Under the pieces are notes generated by a model that ran no database searches, had not been told where the DNA came from, and saw only the letters and a list, made by a program, of their open reading frames with translations. The position numbers were made by a program, and so were the translations under genes. Of a stretch of 34,317 nucleotides of DNA, positions 8,004 to 27,134 are shown piece by piece. Source of the DNA: a virus (taxonomy: Duplodnaviria > Caudoviricetes); IMG/VR virus record IMGVR_UViG_3300029823_000006. One strand, 5' to 3'. How positions within the stretch are numbered: the stretch's first letter is position 1; the number at the start of each line of letters is the position of its first letter.

Positions 8004-10424
8004 TTAATATTCTAGTGCCAGTTTGCGAGACAGATTTTTGAATTCCCTGGCTAATTCTTTTTCAGATAGAGGCTTTGGTGACACAACAGAGATATTTTGA
8101 GTGATACTTGTACCATTGGCATTCCCTTGCCCAGATAAACCTCTGTAATTAAAATCAAAACTAGTTGGTACAGCATTTTGCATATCCCTTGAAACTGCTG
8201 TCATTGCATCCTCAAAACCTACACCGATCCCTTCACCCATATTGTGACCAATCCCAGCAAATAGCTTTGAAGGTGAACTGATGCCAAAGAAATTCTTAAT
8301 CTTTGATACAACATTGCCGAAAAATCCAGAGATTTTACTCCATAGCCATGCACCTGCATCTGAAATACCTTGCCACAGACCTTTGATTAAGTTTCCACCT
8401 ACTTTAGCCATCTGGCTTATATAACTTGTAAAAGCATTGACCAATCCTGAGATAATCTGAGGTACAGCCTTGACGATCTCTACGATTATCCTTGGAAGAT
8501 TCGCAATTAATGCCACAAACAGCTGAACACCGGCCAAGATGATCTTGTCGATGTTACCTACAATAGCGTTTACCAAAGATGTTATTATTTTCGGAATAGC
8601 CCCAACCACAGTAGTGATAATTTGTGGGAGTGCCTGTATGAGCGATATTAATAGACGTATGCCCGCATCTATAATCAATGGAATTGACCCAATAACTGCA
8701 CTGATAATACTGTCGATAATCTGCGGGATTGCTTCCACGATTGCAGTGATAATAGTAGGCAGCGCTGTAACCAGTGAAGTCAATAATTGAATACCTGCAT
8801 CAATAATCTGTGGAATGGACTCCACTATAAAATCCACTATTGCTTTTATGATGACAGGTAAGGCAGTTGTTAGTTGAGGTATTGCATCTACCAATCCCTG
8901 TGCTAATCCTATAATCAACTGCAAAGCGGCATCCAAAATAAGTGGTAGGTTATCCATTAATCCTTGAACAATCTGCGTGACTGCCGAAACTGCTGCGGGT
9001 ATCAGTTGCGGTAGAGCCATGCCAATACCCTCCACAAGTGCGGTTACCAGTTCTATTGCTGCATTTATGAGCAGTGGAAGATTATCAATCAACGCACCGA
9101 CAATCGTCATTACTGCATCTACTGCCGCTGGAATCAGTTCAGGCAGTAAGTTCAAGAGTGTCTCCAACACCTGCGTGAACAGGCTCGTGACAGTTTCCAA
9201 TAACATCGGAAGCAGGTCACCTATTGCTGTTAAAATCGCATCGAACGCAGGCGGGAGTGCGGTTACGATGTTTTCTAAAACAGGCACGATATTTTTAACG
9301 ACTGCACGGAATGCATCCACAAGATTTTCCGTCAAATTTGTCATGTCTGCATTAGCGTTACCGAGTCCTGCTGTAAAAGAGCCAAGTGCAGCTTGTAATA
9401 ACCCAATAGAACCAGAAATGGTCTCAGTTGACTCTCTCGCAAAGTTTCCGGCATACTGCTGTGTGTTCTCAAAAAACATCTGCATTGCGACTTCCGCTTT
9501 TTCCGCTTGTGTAGCGGTATTCCAAGTGAAATCTAGTCCCTTAGCAAGAGCATAAGCTTCGATGTTTGTAGCATTCATGGCAACACCTAAGTTATCCATC
9601 ATGGTAAAGTTGCCTTTTGCCGCTCCCGTAACCGCTTCCATGGCAGCGGACATATCTATACCCATAACGGATGCCATATCTGCTGCACGTTGCATCGCTT
9701 TTTCTGTCAATTCAAGACTTTTTCGCTGTTCAATGCCAGAGCCTTGGAACAATGCACCCATTTTATTAGCCGTTGCCAGATACTCACTTTGGGAAATTCC
9801 GAGATTTCTATAGGCTTCTTCACCGGTTTTTTGAATTGAAGCAGCATATGCTCCAAAGACTGCTTCTGAGCCACCTAGGTTTTGCTCCAATTCCCCAAAC
9901 TGGGTAACTACCTCTTTACCCAATTTTATAGCAGCAGCTCCAGCAGCAACTGCAACTGTGCCCATAGCCACACCGATGCCCTTGAGTATACCACCAAGCT
10001 TTTCAAATTTACCTCCAGAATCTTCCGCACTTTTGCCTGAGTTGTCTAACTCTTCACCGAGATTATCTGCTTCAACCGCAGACTGCTGAAGTTCACGCTC
10101 CATATTATTGAGTTCTGCCTGAGCTCTGTTCAGCTGAATCTGCCAGTTTTGAGTGCGGCGGTCATTTTCACCGAAAGAGGAGGTGGCATTATCAAGAGCG
10201 GCCTTAAGGGTTGAAATCTTTTCTTTCTGTGCGTCGATTTCTTTATTCAAAACCGCATTACGAGCAGTGACCGACTGGATGGATTTATCGTTTTTATCAA
10301 ACTGACTGGTCACAAGTGCCATTTCACTGCCCAGCACCTTAAAGGACTGATTGATATCTCGTAGGGCGTTCTTAAACTCACGCTCGCCCTCGACGCCTAT
10401 TTTCAATCCAAAATTGTCCGCCAT
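8004..10424 (-). CDS. Tail tape measure protein
   Basis: 806 aa; N-terminal coiled coil, then Ala/Ile/Leu-rich amphipathic repeats with periodic LP/IP; C-terminal FFGISSPSK motif. Confidence 0.93.
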   Translation of the reverse strand: MADNFGLKIGVEGEREFKNALRDINQSFKVLGSEMALVTSQFDKNDKSIQSVTARNAVLNKEIDAQKEKISTLKAALDNATSSFGENDRRTQNWQIQLNRAQAELNNMERELQQSAVEADNLGEELDNSGKSAEDSGGKFEKLGGILKGIGVAMGTVAVAAGAAAIKLGKEVVTQFGELEQNLGGSEAVFGAYAASIQKTGEEAYRNLGISQSEYLATANKMGALFQGSGIEQRKSLELTEKAMQRAADMASVMGIDMSAAMEAVTGAAKGNFTMMDNLGVAMNATNIEAYALAKGLDFTWNTATQAEKAEVAMQMFFENTQQYAGNFARESTETISGSIGLLQAALGSFTAGLGNANADMTNLTENLVDAFRAVVKNIVPVLENIVTALPPAFDAILTAIGDLLPMLLETVTSLFTQVLETLLNLLPELIPAAVDAVMTIVGALIDNLPLLINAAIELVTALVEGIGMALPQLIPAAVSAVTQIVQGLMDNLPLILDAALQLIIGLAQGLVDAIPQLTTALPVIIKAIVDFIVESIPQIIDAGIQLLTSLVTALPTIITAIVEAIPQIIDSIISAVIGSIPLIIDAGIRLLISLIQALPQIITTVVGAIPKIITSLVNAIVGNIDKIILAGVQLFVALIANLPRIIVEIVKAVPQIISGLVNAFTSYISQMAKVGGNLIKGLWQGISDAGAWLWSKISGFFGNVVSKIKNFFGISSPSKLFAGIGHNMGEGIGVGFEDAMTAVSRDMQNAVPTSFDFNYRGLSGQGNANGTSITQNISVVSPKPLSEKELAREFKNLSRKLALEY

Positions 10425-18308: not shown

Positions 18309-18346
18309 AGAAAAGAGCCTCAATCCTATAGATGAAGCCCTTTTCT
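18309..18346 (-). terminator. Intrinsic terminator closing the amidoligase unit
   Basis: Minus strand AGAAAAGGGCTTCA-N10-TGAGGCTCTTTTCT stem ending in a U-rich tail. Confidence 0.7.
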
Positions 18347-18365
18347 CTATCCTATTTAGATTTAG

Positions 18366-18554
18366 TTATTTCTTTTTATCCACTTCACCCGTCAGTATGA
18401 AATGGGCATATTCTGCTTTATGGTCTATTAAATAGACTACCAATTCATAAAACCCTCGTTCATTTGCCTCATACTGTACTCGGTCCACATCAAACATATT
18501 TGTGACTCCACTTTCTCGGATGGAAAGGATTTGTTGCTTAATTATCTCATTCAT
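18366..18554 (-). CDS. DUF5049-like small protein
   Basis: QIL.IR.SG.TNMFD...VQ..A...GFYELV...Y..FILTG pattern. Confidence 0.8.
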   Translation of the reverse strand: MNEIIKQQILSIRESGVTNMFDVDRVQYEANERGFYELVVYLIDHKAEYAHFILTGEVDKKK

Positions 18555-19005
18555 TGGCTACCTCCTCCGATTCTATTGAATCAATTGTAGCTTTGCGCAG
18601 AATTTCCACATCGAAGCCCGCACTCTTATAGCCTTCTAAAATTGTACTGTAATAATAACAACTCGGCTGTCCAAGCGGTCTACCATCATTCATGATGTAG
18701 ACCATCGCCTTGACGGTTTTGCTTCCCAACTTCACTTTTATTGTTTCCTTTCGATAAAGGAACGGCCATCCCTCGTAACGGTCAAGTGCCGCTTCATCGG
18801 TCGGTGTAATCTCCCAAACTAAAACTGGTACGTTGCCACCCTCAAAAGGCTCGATTGTCGCCACAGCACCCGCGTGTGCCCCTCTAAATAATAGGCGGTG
18901 GTCATTAATTTGGCTTGCTCCTACCACCTTCGCTGTGGGGCATCTGTCGGCCATTTGCTTTAGATTAAGGTTGGAGCCATAGGCAAGGTATAATTTATTC
19001 TTCAT
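18547..19005 (-). CDS. Gamma-glutamyl cyclotransferase (GGCT/AIG2-like) family protein
   Basis: Y.AYGSNL loop, QM..RCP.A and LDRYEG with the catalytic Glu. Confidence 0.9.
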   Translation of the reverse strand: MKNKLYLAYGSNLNLKQMADRCPTAKVVGASQINDHRLLFRGAHAGAVATIEPFEGGNVPVLVWEITPTDEAALDRYEGWPFLYRKETIKVKLGSKTVKAMVYIMNDGRPLGQPSCYYYSTILEGYKSAGFDVEILRKATIDSIESEEVANE

Positions 19006-19043
19006 TGTAATCCTCCTTCTTAGCTTTGTGGGTTAGGGGCAGC

Positions 19044-19943
19044 TCAGGCCGCCCGAAACCGCCATGCAGCTGAACCCGAAAGTGCTGCTGTCAAATGTTC
19101 TCTGCAGTTTGCAAATTCATCCCCAATGAAACCAATCCGGTTTAGATAGGTTCTCATGGCAAATTTCTCGTTTTCCACCTGCGGTTTCTTTGCTGATGCG
19201 CACTTTTGTGTTAAGGCTTGGTGGTTGATGGCAAGTGCTAGAACAATGTAGCTTCTTATCTTTCCTGCATAAAGTTCGCTATTGAATCCTCTAAGTTCAA
19301 CTGTATGGTTTCCGGTAAAAAAGCTGTGAAGGTTGAGGAAATGGTAGCGGCTGTTGTGGTAATGAGTGCTTCTACTCTCGCTGTAGCCCTCGTACCAAAT
19401 GTCCTCAATTTGTCTCATGGTTTTAGGCTTTTTACGGTTTATCTTCTCAACCAAAATGCTATCCATCTTTTTGCAGTAATTCATTCTCTGCGGTGCAATC
19501 TGAAGTGCTTTATAAAATAAGTCGTTTTTGCTTGCAATGATATTTACAAAGTTTCGAATGCTTCGTGGGGTATGTTCAGCACCGTCTAGATGAATGTGAA
19601 TTCCGCAAGATGTATTTGTAAAGGCTCCAGCTTTGCGAAGCTTTCTTACTAGCTCTTGCAAAGTTTCAATGTCCTCCCGGTAGGTTAGGATTGGGCTAAC
19701 CAGCTCAACACTATAATCTCTACCTGCAGCTACTTTTCTTCTACCTTCTTTTCTTTGGCAATTGATGCTCCCGTCGTACATAAACTTCCACACTCGACCA
19801 TCTGGAGTTTTTACCTTCTTGGTGTCGTAGTATGTCCCGCCTTCACTGTAAATGCCTTGCAAAAACTCTGCAGCTACTTTAGCCGCCCTTTCCCTTGTAA
19901 TCCCGGTAAATTCAATCTCAATCCCGAATTTTGCACTTAACAT
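19044..19943 (-). CDS. Amidoligase (COOH-NH2 ligase, glutamine synthetase/glutamate-cysteine ligase fold; Amidoligase_2-like)
   Basis: FGIEIE, W....DGSI, ELVSPIL, SCGIHIH, RY..LN and TVELR motifs, all intact. Confidence 0.9.
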   Translation of the reverse strand: MLSAKFGIEIEFTGITRERAAKVAAEFLQGIYSEGGTYYDTKKVKTPDGRVWKFMYDGSINCQRKEGRRKVAAGRDYSVELVSPILTYREDIETLQELVRKLRKAGAFTNTSCGIHIHLDGAEHTPRSIRNFVNIIASKNDLFYKALQIAPQRMNYCKKMDSILVEKINRKKPKTMRQIEDIWYEGYSESRSTHYHNSRYHFLNLHSFFTGNHTVELRGFNSELYAGKIRSYIVLALAINHQALTQKCASAKKPQVENEKFAMRTYLNRIGFIGDEFANCREHLTAALSGSAAWRFRAA

Positions 19944-19985
19944 CGTGTCTCGCTCCTTTTAAAGTGTGTTTGTCCTTTCGGCATG

Positions 19986-20019
19986 TACATATATCACTCT
20001 AAAAGGCTTATATAGCAAG
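19986..20019 (-). promoter_or_regulatory. Repeated promoter/operator motif, copy 2 (upstream of the amidoligase)
   Basis: Minus strand CTTGCTA-N9-TTTAGAGTGATATATGTA; the 18-bp core is identical to copy 1. Confidence 0.7.
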
Positions 20020-20078
20020 ACAATTCTGCAATATAAATCTACATATTTACTGCCATATTGGGCTTAAAATGTGTATTT

Positions 20079-20306
20079 TTATTCTTCGATTTTCTTGCAT
20101 AAATCCTCTCCAAAAACCACTCCAAGGGAACTGCCTGAATCCCAACTGACGTGGATAGTTCCCATATCATCAACACTAGTAACCGTACCTTTATCTCCTG
20201 GCTGAAGCTTGGTATAAGGGTCATTCATCTTAAGTAGCATGACACGAGTTCCTGGAGTGTAATAACTTCTAAGTTGCTTTAGCATTTCTGGATGAATGAT
20301 ATTCAT
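20079..20306 (-). CDS. DUF4314-like SH3-type small protein
   Basis: Y.PGTRV.L..M.DPY..L.PG..GTV..VDD.GTIHV.WD.GSSLG pattern. Confidence 0.85.
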   Translation of the reverse strand: MNIIHPEMLKQLRSYYTPGTRVMLLKMNDPYTKLQPGDKGTVTSVDDMGTIHVSWDSGSSLGVVFGEDLCKKIEE

Positions 20307-21094
20307 TATTCACTCACCTCCTCATGCTTGGCACTTCCGCTTTTGAAGGCAGAGCTACCCGACAGTTTGGAGAGGAGAATTTTTCGTTCTGTTTTGTATT
20401 CTGGCCCGATAAAGCCAAGTCTTAGAAGGAAACAACGGAAAGCGTACTTTTCATTCTCCACTGATTTCTCGGTCGAGTTGACGCGGGTCTGTTTCTTTGC
20501 CATTTCACAAAGTGCTGTTACAAAGTGGGTATAAGCCTTAACCTCCTCTGCGGAGCACTTACTTTTGAACCAAGGGAAGGTTATAAATTCCTCATTTACG
20601 ATAATGGGAATAGAGTCAGTATCAAGTGCTTTCTTTATAAGGTTTTCTTTACTTTCTACCAATCCTTTTAGGTTACCAAGTGCAGTTTCGCTAAAACCCT
20701 CCCTCGGCATTTGAATAATCAAACTAATAGCTTCTTCGGTTTCATTTGATTCGCTGTATACGGGAGGTTCTTCGTAATCACTATTTGGACTTACCCTACC
20801 CCCAAGAGCCGCTTCATTGGGAACTTGAATATTTTCAAGAACAGGATCTGCTGCTGGAAGTGGTGTGTCAAATTCTACTGTAACCGCCTTAAAGTCATGA
20901 AGGCCTAATAGATTATTAACCAGTTCAGAATTATCTGGTCCTCTGACTACCCCGTTTTTGTCAATGTTGTAGTCTGCCACTTCATATGCAAATGTAGGTG
21001 CTCCAAGATATCTTGCAGGAGCATTCAGTTTTTGGCTGATTGCGTTGACTAGCTCTTTTCTTTTTGCTCCTGTGACATTATAATTTATCTGCAT
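20306..21094 (-). CDS. Protein of the kind usually labelled 'virulence-related protein'; probable inactive amidoligase paralogue
   Basis: Y.GAPTFAYEV and ENEKYAFRCFLLRLGFIG motifs; the C-terminus aligns without gaps to the neighbouring amidoligase. Confidence 0.75.
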   Translation of the reverse strand: MQINYNVTGAKRKELVNAISQKLNAPARYLGAPTFAYEVADYNIDKNGVVRGPDNSELVNNLLGLHDFKAVTVEFDTPLPAADPVLENIQVPNEAALGGRVSPNSDYEEPPVYSESNETEEAISLIIQMPREGFSETALGNLKGLVESKENLIKKALDTDSIPIIVNEEFITFPWFKSKCSAEEVKAYTHFVTALCEMAKKQTRVNSTEKSVENEKYAFRCFLLRLGFIGPEYKTERKILLSKLSGSSAFKSGSAKHEEVSE

Positions 21095-21124
21095 TTTTTA
21101 TACCGCCTTTCTATTTTCGGTACA

Positions 21125-21158
21125 TACATATATCACTCTAAAGGCTGTTAATATCAAG
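21125..21158 (-). promoter_or_regulatory. Repeated promoter/operator motif, copy 1
   Basis: Minus strand CTTGATA-N9-TTTAGAGTGATATATGTA; same spacing as copy 2. Confidence 0.7.
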
Positions 21159-21195: not shown

Positions 21196-23139
21196 TTAAT
21201 CGGCGGTATTTTCAGCAGATAACACAATACCAGTCAGCACAAAACAGACGCATGGAAGTGCTACACCATTACCCCACATTTTATACTCAGCTGAATCAGA
21301 ATGAGGGTTGTTAAGCCATTTTATAATCTGCTTTCTTGTTTTTGGCTTGCTGCTCTTACCCATGATTTTGCGGTGAGTTTCCCAAACCTCTGTCCAGAAT
21401 AAAATTTCATCCTCTGTAGGGTTTTCCGTACCGAGGTCATCACACCAATCATCAGGAAAACCTTGCAATCTTGCACATTCCGTTGGTGTAAGCCTTCGAA
21501 CTATATATTCTGGCTCATCGTTTTTCTTGACTGTAACAAGCATATCGTTTGATGCATCCTGACCGTTAAAACCACTTGGATGTGCACCTGCAGAAATCGT
21601 ACCACTGACATTCTGATAAGGTTGTGCCACAGCCGATGGACCTTGAGCATTTAATGTTGATGCAACACTGTCTTCTGTTATCCCTAAATTTCTAGCAAAA
21701 TTCTGTCCGCAGTTAAAGGTTTCACGATCAATTGCATACACAACACCATGTCTATCCACTGTATTAAGAGTGAAACTCATATTGTCATTTATACCACCGC
21801 CTTGAGGACCGTTTTTATCCTGTCTTCCAATCATCGAGCCTTGAAGAGCAACTACTGCAATACCACCTTGATTACATCCCGGATTTCCACCATTAGCATC
21901 GATGGTTCGGGAAGTATCCGCTTCATATATACCGCTATGAGGATTGCTTGACTGCATCGAGTTGCTCTTATCAGAACAGATGCCAAATGCAGTAGGCACA
22001 AAAACGGTCTGGTCATTGTTGCATCCAAGGGTCGCAGACTTATCATCTTGAATTAACGCACCTTTACCGCCACCTTCACACCCAGAACGAATTTTTAGGG
22101 TCTTTGGAGTCTCATTTAATGATACAGCCGCTGGTACGACTCCTGCCCTTAACGTTGGTGAAATTTCCTCCTCATATCCAATACTACGACTATCCGATGA
22201 ATGTTCTGTGCAGAATCCAGCAGTTGTTACAAAAGGTTGATTATTACCACCCTTCCCATATGTAGCGGATACAGTTGGTGCTACATCAACGGGGCCTTTG
22301 TATCGTGTATCTTGACTGTGGTTTTCAAACATTACACAGGGTGGATGATTTGCTTTTGCTCTAAGTGTTGCTGTCTTACCATCAAGCACATCGATGCGTT
22401 GTCCACCTTGATCGTTTAAGCATACAGTGCCTGTCTTTCCAGTGCAGTTTTTAGCATTTCCGGAAGTTCTTTGCCACGGGCTGCCGCTCGGCGTAAAATT
22501 CCTTGGCATGCCTTCGGACTCAAATAGTATTTCTGCGGCACTTCTGCCTGCAAAATCTGCGACAAGGTAGATTCTACGACGACGTTGGGGTACTCCGAAA
22601 TATTGCGCATCGATAGTTCGGTAAGCCACACTCCATCCGTCTCCCATATAGATGTCAGCGTATGCCCATCGTCCTTTTTCAGGTAAAGGCACCGAGGTGT
22701 TCGGCTCTTTGACACCGATGACCGCTTCGAGGACTGCCCTAAAATCCTCTCCTTTATTTGACGAGAATGCGCCGGGGACATTTTCCCAGACTGCATACCT
22801 TGGATATTGTCCATTGGTCTTACACCTCATTTCCTTGATAATTCTTATTGCTTCATAAAAAAGGACGGATTGTTCTCCGTCCAGACCAGCTCTTTTACCC
22901 GCCACACTCATATCTGTGCAGGGAGAGCCAAATGTTATGATGTCTACAGGTGGAAGCTCCGCACCATTTAATTTGTTTATATCCCCATAATGCTTCATCT
23001 GAGGGATGCGTTTGGTCGTAACTCTTATAGGAAACGGCTCAATTTCAGATGCCCATAAAGGCTCAATGCCACAGAGCAGACCACCTAGAGGAAAACCTCC
23101 GCTCCCATCAAAAAGGGAGCCGAGTGTCAATTTACTCAT
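21196..23139 (-). CDS. DNA (cytosine-5) methyltransferase with expanded variable region (probably multispecific)
   Basis: Motif I LFDGSGG, IV GSPC, VI WENVPG, VIII QRRRRIYLV, IX RRLTPTECARLQGFPD, X WGNGV. Confidence 0.93.
   Translation of the reverse strand: MSKLTLGSLFDGSGGFPLGGLLCGIEPLWASEIEPFPIRVTTKRIPQMKHYGDINKLNGAELPPVDIITFGSPCTDMSVAGKRAGLDGEQSVLFYEAIRIIKEMRCKTNGQYPRYAVWENVPGAFSSNKGEDFRAVLEAVIGVKEPNTSVPLPEKGRWAYADIYMGDGWSVAYRTIDAQYFGVPQRRRRIYLVADFAGRSAAEILFESEGMPRNFTPSGSPWQRTSGNAKNCTGKTGTVCLNDQGGQRIDVLDGKTATLRAKANHPPCVMFENHSQDTRYKGPVDVAPTVSATYGKGGNNQPFVTTAGFCTEHSSDSRSIGYEEEISPTLRAGVVPAAVSLNETPKTLKIRSGCEGGGKGALIQDDKSATLGCNNDQTVFVPTAFGICSDKSNSMQSSNPHSGIYEADTSRTIDANGGNPGCNQGGIAVVALQGSMIGRQDKNGPQGGGINDNMSFTLNTVDRHGVVYAIDRETFNCGQNFARNLGITEDSVASTLNAQGPSAVAQPYQNVSGTISAGAHPSGFNGQDASNDMLVTVKKNDEPEYIVRRLTPTECARLQGFPDDWCDDLGTENPTEDEILFWTEVWETHRKIMGKSSKPKTRKQIIKWLNNPHSDSAEYKMWGNGVALPCVCFVLTGIVLSAENTAD
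22416..22814 (-). CDS. Nested alternative-frame gene, putative MTase beta-type subunit
   Basis: 132 aa with its own SD GAGGTG 8 nt before the ATG. Contains STLSQILQAEVPQKYYLSPKACQGILRRA, resembling the segment that normally follows motif VIII in C5 MTases. Confidence 0.7.
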   Translation of the reverse strand: MDNIQGMQSGKMSPAHSRQIKERILGQSSKRSSVSKSRTPRCLYLKKDDGHTLTSIWETDGVWLTELSMRNISEYPNVVVESTLSQILQAEVPQKYYLSPKACQGILRRAAARGKELPEMLKTALERQALYA

Positions 23140-24373
23140 CTACATTCACCTCCGGCAGGTCACAATATCTTATTTTCGAACCATCTCTTAAAAGAAACAC
23201 ACCGTCTGAGTTTCCAACTTGCTCAATATACCTTTTCACAATAACATCACAATACTTTTCATCCAGTTCAATGGTGTAGCAGATTCTATCTGTCTGCTCA
23301 CAGGCAATCAGTGTGCTTCCTGAACCACCAAAAGGATCAAGCACGATACAATTAGAAAGGCTTGAATTCAAAATAGGGTAGGCCACAAGTGCAACTGGCT
23401 TCATCGTAGGATGATCACTGTTTTTCTTCGGTTTCTCAAATTCCCAGATGGTGGTCTGCTTTCTATCGGAATACCAGTTATGCTTGCCTTTCTTTTTCCA
23501 CCCAAAGAGAATAGGTTCATGCTGCCACTGATAAGGAGAGCGACCGAGAACAAGGGACTGCTTTTTCCAAATACAAGTACCGGAAAGATAAAATCCTGCA
23601 TCGGAGAATGCTCTTCTAAAATTGAGTCCTTCGGTATCCGCATGGAATACATAAATAGAAGCGTCCTTTGCCATCGCTGCTTCGGTGTTCTGAAATGCTG
23701 CAAGCAGGAAATCGTAGAACGCTTCGTTAGCCATATTGTCATTTTTGATTTTTCCAGCAGTGCCTTCATAGTTAACATTATATGGAGGGTCCGTAACTAC
23801 CAAATTAGCAGTTTTCCCATCCATCAAGAGATCAAAGGTGTCTTTCTTTGTACTGTCTCCGCAGACTAATCGATGCTGCCCAAGTAGCCAAATATCCCCT
23901 AAATGCGAAACAGCGGGCTTTTTCAGCTCGCTGTCTACATCGAAATCATCTTCTTTTATATTATCCTTAAGGGAATCCTTGAAAAGATCGTCCAACTCTC
24001 CTGGGTCAAAACCTGTCAAAGACACATCAAAGTCTGAAGCATTTAAGTCCGTGATGAGAAGTGCTAATTTGTCTTTATCCCAATCACCACTTATTTTATT
24101 TAGTGCAATGTTCAGCGCCTTCTCCTTTTGCTCATCCATTTCAACAACTACGCATTCTATCTCATCCATGCCCATACTCAGCAGGATTTTCAAACGCTGA
24201 TGACCTCCGATGACTCTGCCTGTGGTCTTATTCCATATTACGGGTTCTACATATCCAAACTCCTCAAGGGAGCGTTTAAGTTTCTCATATTCCGGATCAC
24301 CCGGTTTTAAATCCTTCCTTGGGTTATATTCAGCGGGGATGAGTTGTTTAGTTTTTATCTTCTCTATCAACAT
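23132..24373 (-). CDS. ParB-like N-terminal domain fused to a beta-class amino (N6-adenine/N4-cytosine) DNA methyltransferase
   Basis: ParB motifs YNPRK and GGHQRL; catalytic DPPY precedes HPTMKP and the SAM-binding LDPFGGSGST. Probable start ATG 24373. Confidence 0.92.
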   Translation of the reverse strand: MLIEKIKTKQLIPAEYNPRKDLKPGDPEYEKLKRSLEEFGYVEPVIWNKTTGRVIGGHQRLKILLSMGMDEIECVVVEMDEQKEKALNIALNKISGDWDKDKLALLITDLNASDFDVSLTGFDPGELDDLFKDSLKDNIKEDDFDVDSELKKPAVSHLGDIWLLGQHRLVCGDSTKKDTFDLLMDGKTANLVVTDPPYNVNYEGTAGKIKNDNMANEAFYDFLLAAFQNTEAAMAKDASIYVFHADTEGLNFRRAFSDAGFYLSGTCIWKKQSLVLGRSPYQWQHEPILFGWKKKGKHNWYSDRKQTTIWEFEKPKKNSDHPTMKPVALVAYPILNSSLSNCIVLDPFGGSGSTLIACEQTDRICYTIELDEKYCDVIVKRYIEQVGNSDGVFLLRDGSKIRYCDLPEVNVDE

Positions 24374-25529
24374 ACTTTTCCACCGCCTTTCTAAATTCAC
24401 TGTACTTATTTACATCCTCCCACGGGAATAGACAACTATTAAAGTGACCATAAGCCGCTGTGTCAGAGTAAATCACATTCCTTAGACGCAACTTCTCTAT
24501 GATTGCCGCAGGTCTTAAATTGAAAATCTCCTGTGCAGCAAGAGTTAATATTTCGTCAGAAACAATACCTGTGCCAAGGGTATTTACAGAAAAGGCTACA
24601 GGATTTGCCTTACCAATGGCATAGGATATACTAACTTCACATCTCTTTGCATAACCACACCAGACGATATGCTTTGCAATGTACCGAGCCATATAGGCAC
24701 CGCTTCGGTCAACCTTGGTGGGGTCTTTACCACTAAGTGCGCCACCTCCATGGGATGCAAGTCCTCCATAGGTATCAACCATAACTTTTCTACCAGTTAA
24801 GCCTGTATCGGCAGCGGGACCACCTTCGACAAATCTACCAGAGGGGTTAATGAGAATTTCTGTTTCATCATCAAATGGGAAATCCTCAAAGCACTGCCAT
24901 AGGACATTGTTAAGGATATCTGTCTTAAGTTCTTCCTGTGTTTTATTCTTATCATGCTGTACCGATATCACAATAGTCTTTATTCGCACTGGAGTGTCCC
25001 CTTCATATTCCACCGTCACCTGTGCTTTACCATCTGGGTGTATACCTTTTATCAGTTTCCCTTTTCGGCAATCATCCAGTCTCTTTACAATCCTGTGAGA
25101 TAGTACAAGGGGTAGGGGAAGCATTTCTCCCGTTTCCTTTGTAGCATAGCCATACACAGTTCCTTGGTCTCCAGCACCTATCGAACCATACTGTTCATTT
25201 ATTCCATTTCTTACTTCCAGTGCAGTATCCACGCCAGTTGCAATATCTACACTTTGTTTGTGTACAAATACATAAATCAAGAATTTAAGAGGGTTGTATC
25301 CAATCTCTTTAAGGACATTCCTAACAATGTATCGGATGTCTATTTTCTCGCTGCAGGAGATTTCGCCCGCCACGATAATTTTCCCTTTGGTTGCCATTAC
25401 CTCACAAGCGACACGTGATGCTTTGTCTTTACGTAAACATGCTTCTAAAATGCTATCTGCTATGATGTCGCATAGTTTATCAGGATGTCCGGCACATACA
25501 CTTTCAGCTGTTAAATATCTTTTACTCAT
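24348..25529 (-). CDS. metK: S-adenosylmethionine synthetase (methionine adenosyltransferase)
   Basis: ESV..GHPDK.CD, GAGDQG, DGKAQV, GGP.ADTGLTGRK, GGGALSGKDPTKVDRS and YGHF signatures. Probable start ATG 25529, after SD GAGGAG. Confidence 0.96.
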   Translation of the reverse strand: MSKRYLTAESVCAGHPDKLCDIIADSILEACLRKDKASRVACEVMATKGKIIVAGEISCSEKIDIRYIVRNVLKEIGYNPLKFLIYVFVHKQSVDIATGVDTALEVRNGINEQYGSIGAGDQGTVYGYATKETGEMLPLPLVLSHRIVKRLDDCRKGKLIKGIHPDGKAQVTVEYEGDTPVRIKTIVISVQHDKNKTQEELKTDILNNVLWQCFEDFPFDDETEILINPSGRFVEGGPAADTGLTGRKVMVDTYGGLASHGGGALSGKDPTKVDRSGAYMARYIAKHIVWCGYAKRCEVSISYAIGKANPVAFSVNTLGTGIVSDEILTLAAQEIFNLRPAAIIEKLRLRNVIYSDTAAYGHFNSCLFPWEDVNKYSEFRKAVEKYVDREDKN

Positions 25530-25546
25530 TATATATCTCCTCATCT

Positions 25547-26098
25547 TTATTTTCCTCTGCGGGCAGATAGCAGTCGCTCCATCACATCGTCCTGTGGGTT
25601 TAAACCAGAATACTCTGTAGCACAATTCTCTTTAACGATTTGATAAATCTCCATCCACAATCTGTTTGTCTGACTCATAAAGTTCTGACTCATAGCTACA
25701 TAAGGACTTTGAATAGCATTGCCGGTAGTTGGATGCTTGGCAAGAAAGCCAAACTCAGTTACCGCCTCCTCACACTGTATCCATCTGGCCGCACTCATGG
25801 CATATCGTTCTAGAAGCTGTGGGAGCACCAAATGGGCACAGCCTCGCTCCTCAAGCCATTTCCAAGTAATTTCATAAATCTCGCTGGCTACTAGGGTTTT
25901 CCCGTCCTTTTGCACCGCTGAGAGCATGGCCCTTGGCTTTGGCATTTCCTGCCCCTTTAAATCAGCGGTATTTTGGAAGTCGATAATTTCTAGCTTTCTC
26001 TTACCTGGATTACCCTGTGCAATTTTATCAGCAAGTGGTTTCTTTTTTTGACCAGAGCCTATACGGGCACCGCCACGATTTGTTCCATCTTTGGCCAT
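25547..26098 (-). CDS. terS: Terminase small subunit (P27-like)
   Basis: N-terminal RGGAR.G.G.K.KP and GNPGKR; G...QSPYV; D.MERLL near the C-terminus; lies downstream of the HNH gene. Confidence 0.85.
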   Translation of the reverse strand: MAKDGTNRGGARIGSGQKKKPLADKIAQGNPGKRKLEIIDFQNTADLKGQEMPKPRAMLSAVQKDGKTLVASEIYEITWKWLEERGCAHLVLPQLLERYAMSAARWIQCEEAVTEFGFLAKHPTTGNAIQSPYVAMSQNFMSQTNRLWMEIYQIVKENCATEYSGLNPQDDVMERLLSARRGK

Positions 26099-26723: not shown

Positions 26724-27134
26724 TTATTTAGGCACCTTTAAATGCTGCAAGGCTGATGAGTGAAGTCTATGCACAGTTCTCATAGAAACATTAAGGTTGA
26801 CACAGATTTCTTCCCAGTTAAGAAAGTTAATGTAACGGTAGCGAAGAAGCAGCTTCTCATCCACGTTTTCCATCTGGTTAATCGCTTCACGAATATCTGA
26901 CTTAAGCTTTATTAAACGTTCCACCTCTTGTTGTATCTGCTTCTCCAAATCTACTATTCTAATCACGTATTTTTCAAAAGGTGGATCAGTACTTTTTGTT
27001 TTACTGACTTTTTCCTCAAGAACAGGAGATGAAACACTCCTTGAGAGTTCCCTTAGATTTTGTAACTCCTCTAGATCGGAATTAATCAACTCATTTAAGC
27101 GATATGCTTGTTTCAAGAATTCCTTTGCCGTCAT
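26724..27134 (-). CDS. Late transcriptional regulator (DUF1492/ArpU/RinA-like, sigma region 4-type HTH)
   Basis: MTAKEFL.QAY start; C-terminal LL.YRYI....WEEIC..LN.S.RTV.RLH..AL; last gene before the packaging module. Confidence 0.82.
   Translation of the reverse strand: MTAKEFLKQAYRLNELINSDLEELQNLRELSRSVSSPVLEEKVSKTKSTDPPFEKYVIRIVDLEKQIQQEVERLIKLKSDIREAINQMENVDEKLLLRYRYINFLNWEEICVNLNVSMRTVHRLHSSALQHLKVPK

Follow-up and report, generated by a model that had tools for sequence, protein, structure and literature searches.

An amidoligase-derived pseudoenzyme and an amidoligase–cyclotransferase pair are separable modules in a widespread prophage gene block

When a phage carries an enzyme and, close by, an apparently dead copy of it, do the two work together? 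The question is raised by a block of five genes in IMG/VR virus record IMGVR_UViG_3300029823_000006 (Duplodnaviria; Caudoviricetes), a stretch of 34,317 nucleotides referred to here as the window. Between positions 18,309 and 21,158 it encodes, all on the minus strand and at the coordinates first assigned to them, a 262-residue protein of the kind labelled 'virulence protein', a DUF4314 protein, a 299-residue Amidoligase_2, a gamma-glutamyl cyclotransferase (GGCT) and a DUF5049 protein. The initial annotation read this block as a single regulated five-gene system in which the dead paralogue was a regulatory or substrate-binding partner of the ligase and GGCT. The feature itself proved real and widespread, but it consists of two separable modules. 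On balance, we favor a reading in which the ligase and GGCT form an optional pair that adds and removes a group, and the older, near-core dead copy probably acts alone as a non-catalytic binder.

The 262-residue protein (20306..21094, minus strand) and the ligase (19044..19943, minus strand) both match phrog_2443, with E values of 4.3e-64 and 9.6e-96, respectively. Their alignment over the last 82 residues, first put at about 28 identities by eye, is exactly that (28 identities in 82 ungapped columns), with BLASTP returning 29/80 identities (E 7e-13), and the middle block that had also been proposed to match holds up at 8/34 ungapped identities. Comparison of an alignment of 129 paralogues with one of 62 ligases by HHalign extends the match to 220 columns (probability 99.92%, E 6.7e-35), including the N-terminus, which had been missed in the first reading. 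The 262-residue protein is thus an Amidoligase_2-derived homologue, sharing ancestry and fold with the ligase over its whole length, even though it has no Pfam match and so falls outside PF12224. It lacks ligase segments ~61-89 and 153-207 and has gained an acidic insert (residues 75-122 hold 11 D/E and a single K/R), giving a ferredoxin-like N-domain (residues 1-74), a variable acidic linker (75-122) and a C-half (123-255) of the type found in glutamine synthetases (GS) and glutamate-cysteine ligases (GCS), which carries a conserved basic module.

An unrooted tree of 185 columns places a single long branch, with support of 100/100, between 41 dead and 30 active proteins, in agreement with the proposal that an old duplication gave rise to an enzyme and a pseudoenzyme. 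A longer subtype of the dead paralogue that still contains the helical insert of the ligase (L291, L292, L295, L390, L393, L399) is intermediate in form, and the long-type proteins fall between the ligases and the short type in the tree. Their position suggests that the gene was duplicated once, long ago and not within this phage, and was then trimmed in steps. On the ligase side, eight loci (L137, L152, L156, L335, L336, L338, L340, L349) show a ligase match lengthened from 897 nt to ~1,225-1,275 nt; the gene, or the sequence before it, may have taken up an insertion or undergone partial tandem duplication.

The ligase scores 258.6 bits against PF12224 (cut-off 22, E 9.4e-77), a model that stops at residue 239, and E9, E11, E80, H116, H118, R199, Y200, E216 and R218 are invariant in 30/30 ligases; the catalytic roles of these nine residues are taken from knowledge of the family rather than mapped one by one. 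As first noted, GIEIE, ELVSP, HIH and ELR are all present in the ligase and absent from the paralogue, where ELR aligns to TFP. More broadly, the predicted catalytic set is gone in 41/41 paralogues (that of the window, all 10 of the long type and a random 30 of the 75 short-type representatives), with lone positions still glutamate in a few rows. What both families retain is the basic C-terminal module, N258, K260, R264 and R281 in the ligase, and the residues conserved across the 129 paralogues are basic or aromatic, not acidic (R12, K13, Y29, K149, F173, W175, R204, K216, R220, R237).

Structure prediction is consistent with this division. The ligase model (predicted local distance difference test, pLDDT, 94; predicted template modelling score, pTM, 0.92) matches YbdK, glutamate-cysteine ligases, glutamine synthetases and PafA/Dop, the best being the YbdK-type 1tt4 (Z 13.6, root-mean-square deviation 3.9, 235 residues aligned), followed by a plant GCL at Z 12.6, and the structural alignment reaches residue 291. 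The 299-residue protein is therefore modelled as an Amidoligase_2 with a GS/GCS-type fold and conserved E-x-E, E, H-x-H, R and E-x-R, and is likely active, as predicted from its residues. The paralogue model consists of two confident domains and a loose linker (pLDDT 89, pTM 0.58). Its best BFVD matches are amidoligases (probability 0.99, but E only 0.07-0.1); the C-half matches GCS, YbdK-type proteins and PafA (Z 5.2-5.4) and the N-half generic ferredoxin-like folds (Z up to 7), middling values that serve to back up the sequence comparison. A PDB sequence search found nothing significant from either the paralogue or the ligase alignment, Foldseek against the PDB gave no match for the pseudoenzyme at E up to 0.001 (weak ribosome-assembly proteins at the top of its rows were not used), and the ESM Atlas offered just unnamed 'virulence protein' clusters and nothing useful for the C-terminal module. 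The shared fold that the original proposal called for is nevertheless borne out by the 220-column homology and the structural matches to amidoligase-type folds. Judged by its residues, the paralogue is a conserved GS-fold pseudoenzyme and not an enzyme.

Do paralogue and ligase travel together? Viral loci with the paralogue numbered 79, of which 9 lacked enough flank. Among the 70 informative loci, 41 carry the full cassette, so that the genes and their motif do co-occur in many related phages, as anticipated; 28 have paralogue, DUF4314 and DUF5049, and one has paralogue and DUF4314, leaving the ligase absent in 29/70. Ligase and GGCT are never lost singly in these loci, and the deletion junctions vary, with the second copy of the motif going along with the two genes. 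DUF4314 (75 residues, 20079..20306, minus strand; a Pfam match with weak SH3-like matches) is the usual gene downstream of the pseudoenzyme, adjoining it in 70/70 informative viral loci and in 24/30 Clostridia loci. DUF5049 (62 residues, 18366..18554, minus strand; Pfam) is retained in 28/29 ligase-less loci, and because it stays when ligase and GGCT are deleted, we assign it to the set of pseudoenzyme and DUF4314 rather than to that of the ligase.

The reverse situation was found in an even sample of 400 Clostridia genomes (one and two genomes were not scored in the two scans). In the 30 best ligase loci, GGCT lies directly downstream in 29, with the paralogue within 1.5 kb in only 15; one of the 15 loci without it lacks full flank. 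In 12 wider loci picked because they lack the paralogue, a profile search in all six frames returned the ligase itself as sole match. The 30 best paralogue loci comprise 14 with ligase, 10 that reach TerL without ligase and 6 that are unclear. Mapped onto a tree built from 61 paralogue genes, presence or absence of the ligase switches 9 times, and well-supported branches force at least 7 of these switches. Within the PV0364xx series of reference phages, counting only records with at least one of the two genes, 44/49 have a full-length dead copy and 5 have the ligase only (2 of the 5 checked), and the paralogue is near-core in this phage lineage. As a separate observation, L293 (Faecalibacterium phage FP_Taranis) has a ligase but no GGCT or paralogue close by; the gene after it encodes a small zinc-ribbon protein that resembles the one found after GGCT in L292 and L294.

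A gene with a ruined active site could also be a relic in slow decay that persists only through its linkage to the packaging genes; its variable linker and its absence from the five ligase-only reference phages could be read that way. The median ratio of non-synonymous to synonymous substitution rates (dN/dS) of the paralogue, however, is 0.077 where the ligase is present (242 pairs), 0.143 where it is absent (104) and 0.074 in mixed pairs (353), the pairs not being independent. The paralogue is thus under purifying selection also where the ligase is absent. These selection data largely refute decay, and together with the residues that are invariant across 129 diverse sequences, the confident fold and the thousands of clusters in the family they make a relic very improbable.

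The two units also share a sequence upstream. The same 18-mer does stand before both genes, exactly, at 19986-20003 and 21125-21142 (0.03 matches expected by chance), with a further site with 3 mismatches at 8095; the cores lie 31 nt before the pseudoenzyme start and 43 nt before that of the ligase. The 18-mer is the downstream half of a bipartite element, the upstream half of which, CTTG(C/A)TAT, was unselected in the scan and is 80-100% conserved at a fixed distance. Copy 1 (21125..21158, minus strand) has a -35-like TTGATA at 21157-21152 and its core at 21142-21125, and copy 2 (19986..20019, minus strand) has TTGCTA at 20018-20013 and its core at 20003-19986. The motif occurs within 120 nt upstream of 76/78 paralogue genes and upstream of 45/46 ligase genes. 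A sigma-70/sigma-A consensus promoter would need a -35 hexamer and, 16-18 nt away, a -10 hexamer whose second position is A and sixth is T; neither copy is called as one by the scan, and no spacing of 17-19 nt yields a consensus -10. With its -35-like TTG(C/A)TA and fixed spacing conserved, the motif is, from its sequence, promoter-shaped but non-consensus, and likely a lineage-wide, possibly activator-dependent promoter. Such a promoter would free the expression of the accessory genes from that of the late packaging operon. A candidate activator, of this motif or of the late operon, is a DUF1492/sigma70 region 4 protein encoded at 26724-27134 (minus strand).

The shared motif had been taken as the record of a duplication of promoter plus ligase, a claim that did not survive a wider scan. 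When one eighth of the viral collection was searched for exact copies, 134 loci were retrieved, with 130 distinct matches; 57 of these precede the paralogue, 25 the ligase, 3 DUF4314 and 42 unrelated genes, and in 3 the following gene is incomplete. The unrelated genes include 14 DUF7698-like and 4 DUF7678-like, named by likeness to Pfam-scanned proteins, and 9 that we take to be large-serine-recombinase-like from a sequence motif. The motif is compatible with a duplication of promoter and gene, yet is no evidence for one. About 1,000 stored viral stretches are estimated to contain the exact 18-mer. A position table of the motif is illustrative at most, as the search pattern fixed the core and made it circular. 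The suggestion that each large gene is first in its own unit, followed by small genes, stands as far as gene order and motifs go; separate units are not borne out, as a terminator scan found none between DUF4314 and the ligase. Four expression runs were rejected as evidence on transcription: their contigs span the entire stretch of prophage, in many cases as long pieces, and probably reflect DNA.

If the paralogue is set aside, what do ligase and GGCT do? The 152-residue protein at 18547..19005 (minus strand) scores 47.7 bits against PF06094 (cut-off 22.8) and has YGSN at residue 9 and LDRYEG at residue 74, both intact, which presumably play the roles these motifs have in GGCT; by sequence it qualifies as a GGCT/AIG2-like cyclotransferase. 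GGCT-fold enzymes release a free gamma-glutamyl group as 5-oxoproline. By analogy with the GS/GCS and GGCT families, the ligase would join glutamate to an amine acceptor using ATP and Mg, and GGCT would remove the gamma-glutamyl group again with release of 5-oxoproline. An add/remove pair is likely because ligase and GGCT are constantly coupled. The coupling extends beyond phages: 8 of the 30 best Clostridia ligase loci sit in conjugation operons, and four of these, read more widely, run VirB4-like ATPase, ligase, GGCT, NlpC/P60 hydrolase and relaxase, with occasional inserts. Since the pair lies between the VirB4-like ATPase and the NlpC/P60 hydrolase in these elements, we tentatively suggest a cell-wall precursor amine as acceptor, a possibility we rate below even. 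Conjugative operons with MobL relaxase, TrbL and VirB4-like genes (Clostridia loci L377-L384, L437-L440) have ligase and GGCT just before the NlpC/P60 gene, and their ligase is longer (~345 residues) and comes without the dead paralogue.

It is also conceivable, although somewhat unlikely, that GGCT is a feeder, splitting glutamine or a gamma-glutamyl amide to supply the ligase with ammonia or an amine in the manner of a glutamine amidotransferase, the pseudoenzyme still being independent. A distant Amidoligase_2 group (L441-L443, L445) has an N-terminal Cys-rich LIM-like region and, in the GGCT slot, a class II glutamine amidotransferase-like gene (Pfam-confirmed in L441, with similar ORFs in L442, L443 and L445). 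This substitution fits an amine feeder and an eraser alike: proteins of the class II amidotransferase fold, such as EgtC, can also remove gamma-glutamyl groups, and characterized GGCT-fold partners such as BtrG deprotect.

For the pseudoenzyme, we arrive at a stand-alone binder because it cannot do ligase chemistry and needs no ligase, and because its basic and aromatic residues show strong conservation. In a more specific form, which we hold at a little under an even chance, the shared basic C-terminal module (N214, K216, R220, R237 in the pseudoenzyme) would bind a ligase-type target and block or shield it, helped by the SH3-like DUF4314. The main rival to a shared target is nucleic acid, the protein having been re-purposed in connection with the MetK/DNA-methyltransferase/terminase block and the ligase pair perhaps modifying a nucleotide or base. 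The same basic and aromatic conservation and the ferredoxin-like N-domain would suit such a role, a DNA methylase usually precedes the pseudoenzyme gene, an Nmad4 gene lies in a relative's cassette, and amidoligases stand alongside DNA-hypermodification genes in other phages, in the part of that report seen (PMC8989533). However, neither the PDB sequence search nor Foldseek against the PDB gave a significant match to a nucleic-acid-binding family, the ligase pair adjoins a cell-wall hydrolase in conjugative elements, and fusions to the methylase look like stop-loss read-through across the promoter; we consider a nucleic-acid role unlikely. These C5 methylase fusions to the pseudoenzyme (P0394, P0395, P0396, the P0394 cluster having 17 members) were not accepted as functional evidence, nor were fusions with primase, AIPR, tail-protein and DUF4314 sequences, which look like deletion junctions with truncated partners. 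A speculative and rather improbable extension of the binder is that the pseudoenzyme is a decoy weapon across thousands of Firmicutes prophages, occupying the target, or poisoning the oligomers, of the cell-wall-modifying amidoligase and GGCT pairs that rival phages and conjugative elements carry. If this were true, the optional ligase and the dead copy would stand on opposite sides of an undescribed conflict, fought over gamma-glutamylation of the cell envelope, with both expressed from a private lineage promoter.

How strongly do the data separate the two modules? The partnership first proposed would have the dead copy serve the ligase/GGCT write-erase system as a subunit that regulates it or binds its substrate, for example in a hetero-oligomer formed through the shared C-terminal helices. 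Enzyme/pseudoenzyme heterodimers such as trypanosome AdoMetDC/prozyme exist, the shared module is invariant in both families and the genes are adjacent in the 41 full cassettes. However, each part is retained without the other, repeatedly and in both directions, and among at most 136 distinct two-gene loci, 14 pair a ligase at least 90% identical to that of the window with a paralogue C-half at most 65% identical, so that paralogue alleles have been swapped under near-identical ligases. Modules taken from one locus resemble each other no more than shuffled pairs do (0.388 vs 0.393, 26 loci), and this comparison revealed neither gene conversion nor co-adaptation of the shared module within loci. 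The co-inheritance and co-evolution of an obligate pair were thus not found in the viral and Clostridia loci, the tree or the allele pairing, and the proposed partnership is not supported; we regard it as quite unlikely. A complex prediction of the pseudoenzyme with ligase and DUF4314 (score 0.01, mark 0.32) gave no answer and was not used as evidence either way.

Several points nevertheless count against two modules acting as we propose. Close relatives of the ligase with enough flank carry the paralogue in 65/65 cases (12 more are too short), but all are at least 83% identical and hence uninformative on whether the ligase occurs without it. Pairwise distances of the two proteins correlate (rho 0.54), and shared ancestry explains this correlation as well as the 65/65. 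The dN/dS of the paralogue, about twofold higher without the ligase, would be compatible with a facultative interaction between the two. Since the ancestral GS/GCS fold includes the C-terminal module, folding and not binding may be the reason for its retention. GGCT could not act directly on the acylated D-glutamate of peptidoglycan, because GGCT chemistry requires a glutamyl group with a free alpha-amino. Finally, enzyme activity, acceptor and binding target are all predictions.

The window as a whole is a single minus-strand prophage arm, running from replication genes through HNH, small terminase, MetK, ParB-N6/N4 methylase and C5 methylase to the five-gene block, and on to large terminase, head and tail genes. 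The small terminase, MetK and two DNA methylases (23132-26098, minus strand) put ~7 kb between the terminase genes; the C5 methylase is an optional gene in relatives, and a 132-residue ORF without a Pfam match (22416-22814, minus strand) is wholly contained in the C5 methylase gene (21196-23139), sharing its strand but not its reading frame. Pfam matches within the block are DUF5049, GGACT, Amidoligase_2 and DUF4314. NCBIfam has no matches for the block proteins, an Rfam scan gave nothing at gathering level (2 weak chance matches), and 0/5 block proteins match PADLOC 2.0 (2023 library) at E up to 1, so that no known anti-phage defence system was recognized there. Near-identical cassettes are present in many Clostridia and Bacilli genomes.

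Two separate units emerge from these results. One is a pair of enzymes with a setting in conjugative elements that points towards the cell wall, the other a predicted binder that stands alone and is close to a core gene of a widespread phage order of gut and digester. The paralogue family comprises at least 7,996 clusters at 90% identity and 1,641 clusters at 50% (E up to 1e-10), both of which may include some active ligases. In databases and in print, this very large family goes under the name of 'virulence protein' or 'amidoligase'; we found no basis for the virulence label in this analysis, and correcting it removes false 'auxiliary metabolic gene' and 'virulence' calls.

How does the block compare with what is known? 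To call it an undescribed system was an overstatement, as the neighborhood of ligase and GGCT is already in print as annotation. Iyer et al. 2009 reportedly described Amidoligase_2 with an AIG2/GGCT neighbor in mobile elements of Firmicutes, and the ligase of the window, with GGCT next to it, belongs to this PF12224 neighborhood; the family model misses the dead paralogue altogether. The prediction in print for Amidoligase_2, as relayed in the portions seen of two later reports, is cell-wall modification against superinfection (PMC11318856, PMC11253131). The PHROG 2443 loci resemble the window in gene order, as far as the excerpts seen go: Tn6164 is tabulated with a virulence-related protein, an amidoligase and AIG2/GGCT (PMC3485107), in C. 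clostridioforme LM41 two prophage segments hold two phrog_2443 'amidoligases' and GGCT (PMC11318856), and Terrisporobacter phage TPDSL_ph1 has 'two amidoligases' before GGCT (PMC11253131). They differ in that these excerpts treat both genes as enzymes or leave the first hypothetical, and do not mention catalytic loss or independent inheritance. In the literature so far as seen, the dead, independent nature of the first 'amidoligase' was not found in print, although Iyer et al. 2009 may treat inactive versions; a search on DUF4314 returned no papers, and one on the motif unrelated papers only. With Ca. Heliusvirales, under which the four PV0364xx records opened are filed, the window shares a TerL up to 86.8% identical to that reference series, a likeness in TerL alone, the order being defined by nine marker genes together with a TerL clade. 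Members of this order often carry MetK and C5 methylase, and the main text of the report on it, in the part seen, has no amidoligase, cyclotransferase or promoter motif, although its supplements may list such genes (PMC11283538).

At the level of fold, YbdK, glutamate-cysteine ligase, glutamine synthetase and PafA/Dop are the best structural matches of the ligase model and the pseudoenzyme C-half, at 9-14% identity, from which the amine substrate cannot be inferred; PafA and Dop are both catalytic, whereas the paralogue of the window is dead. The likely chemistry of ligase and GGCT has its counterpart in the gamma-glutamyl protect/deprotect pairs BtrJ/BtrG, EgtA/EgtC and PuuA/PuuD, in which a ligase adds glutamate and a partner removes it. 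Those pairs belong to biosynthetic or catabolic operons with known substrates, and no pathway genes lie near the pair in the window. A precedent for the pseudoenzyme is lengsin, an inactive glutamine-synthetase paralogue re-used as a binding protein, a GS-fold pseudoenzyme with a job independent of the enzyme that matches the ligase model at Z 7.3; it is eukaryotic and keeps the whole fold, unlike the phage protein with its lost segments and acidic linker. Against this background, ligase and GGCT represent a known neighborhood with a predicted function, and the dead paralogue, as judged from its sequences, represents a large mislabelled pseudoenzyme family with a putative target of its own.

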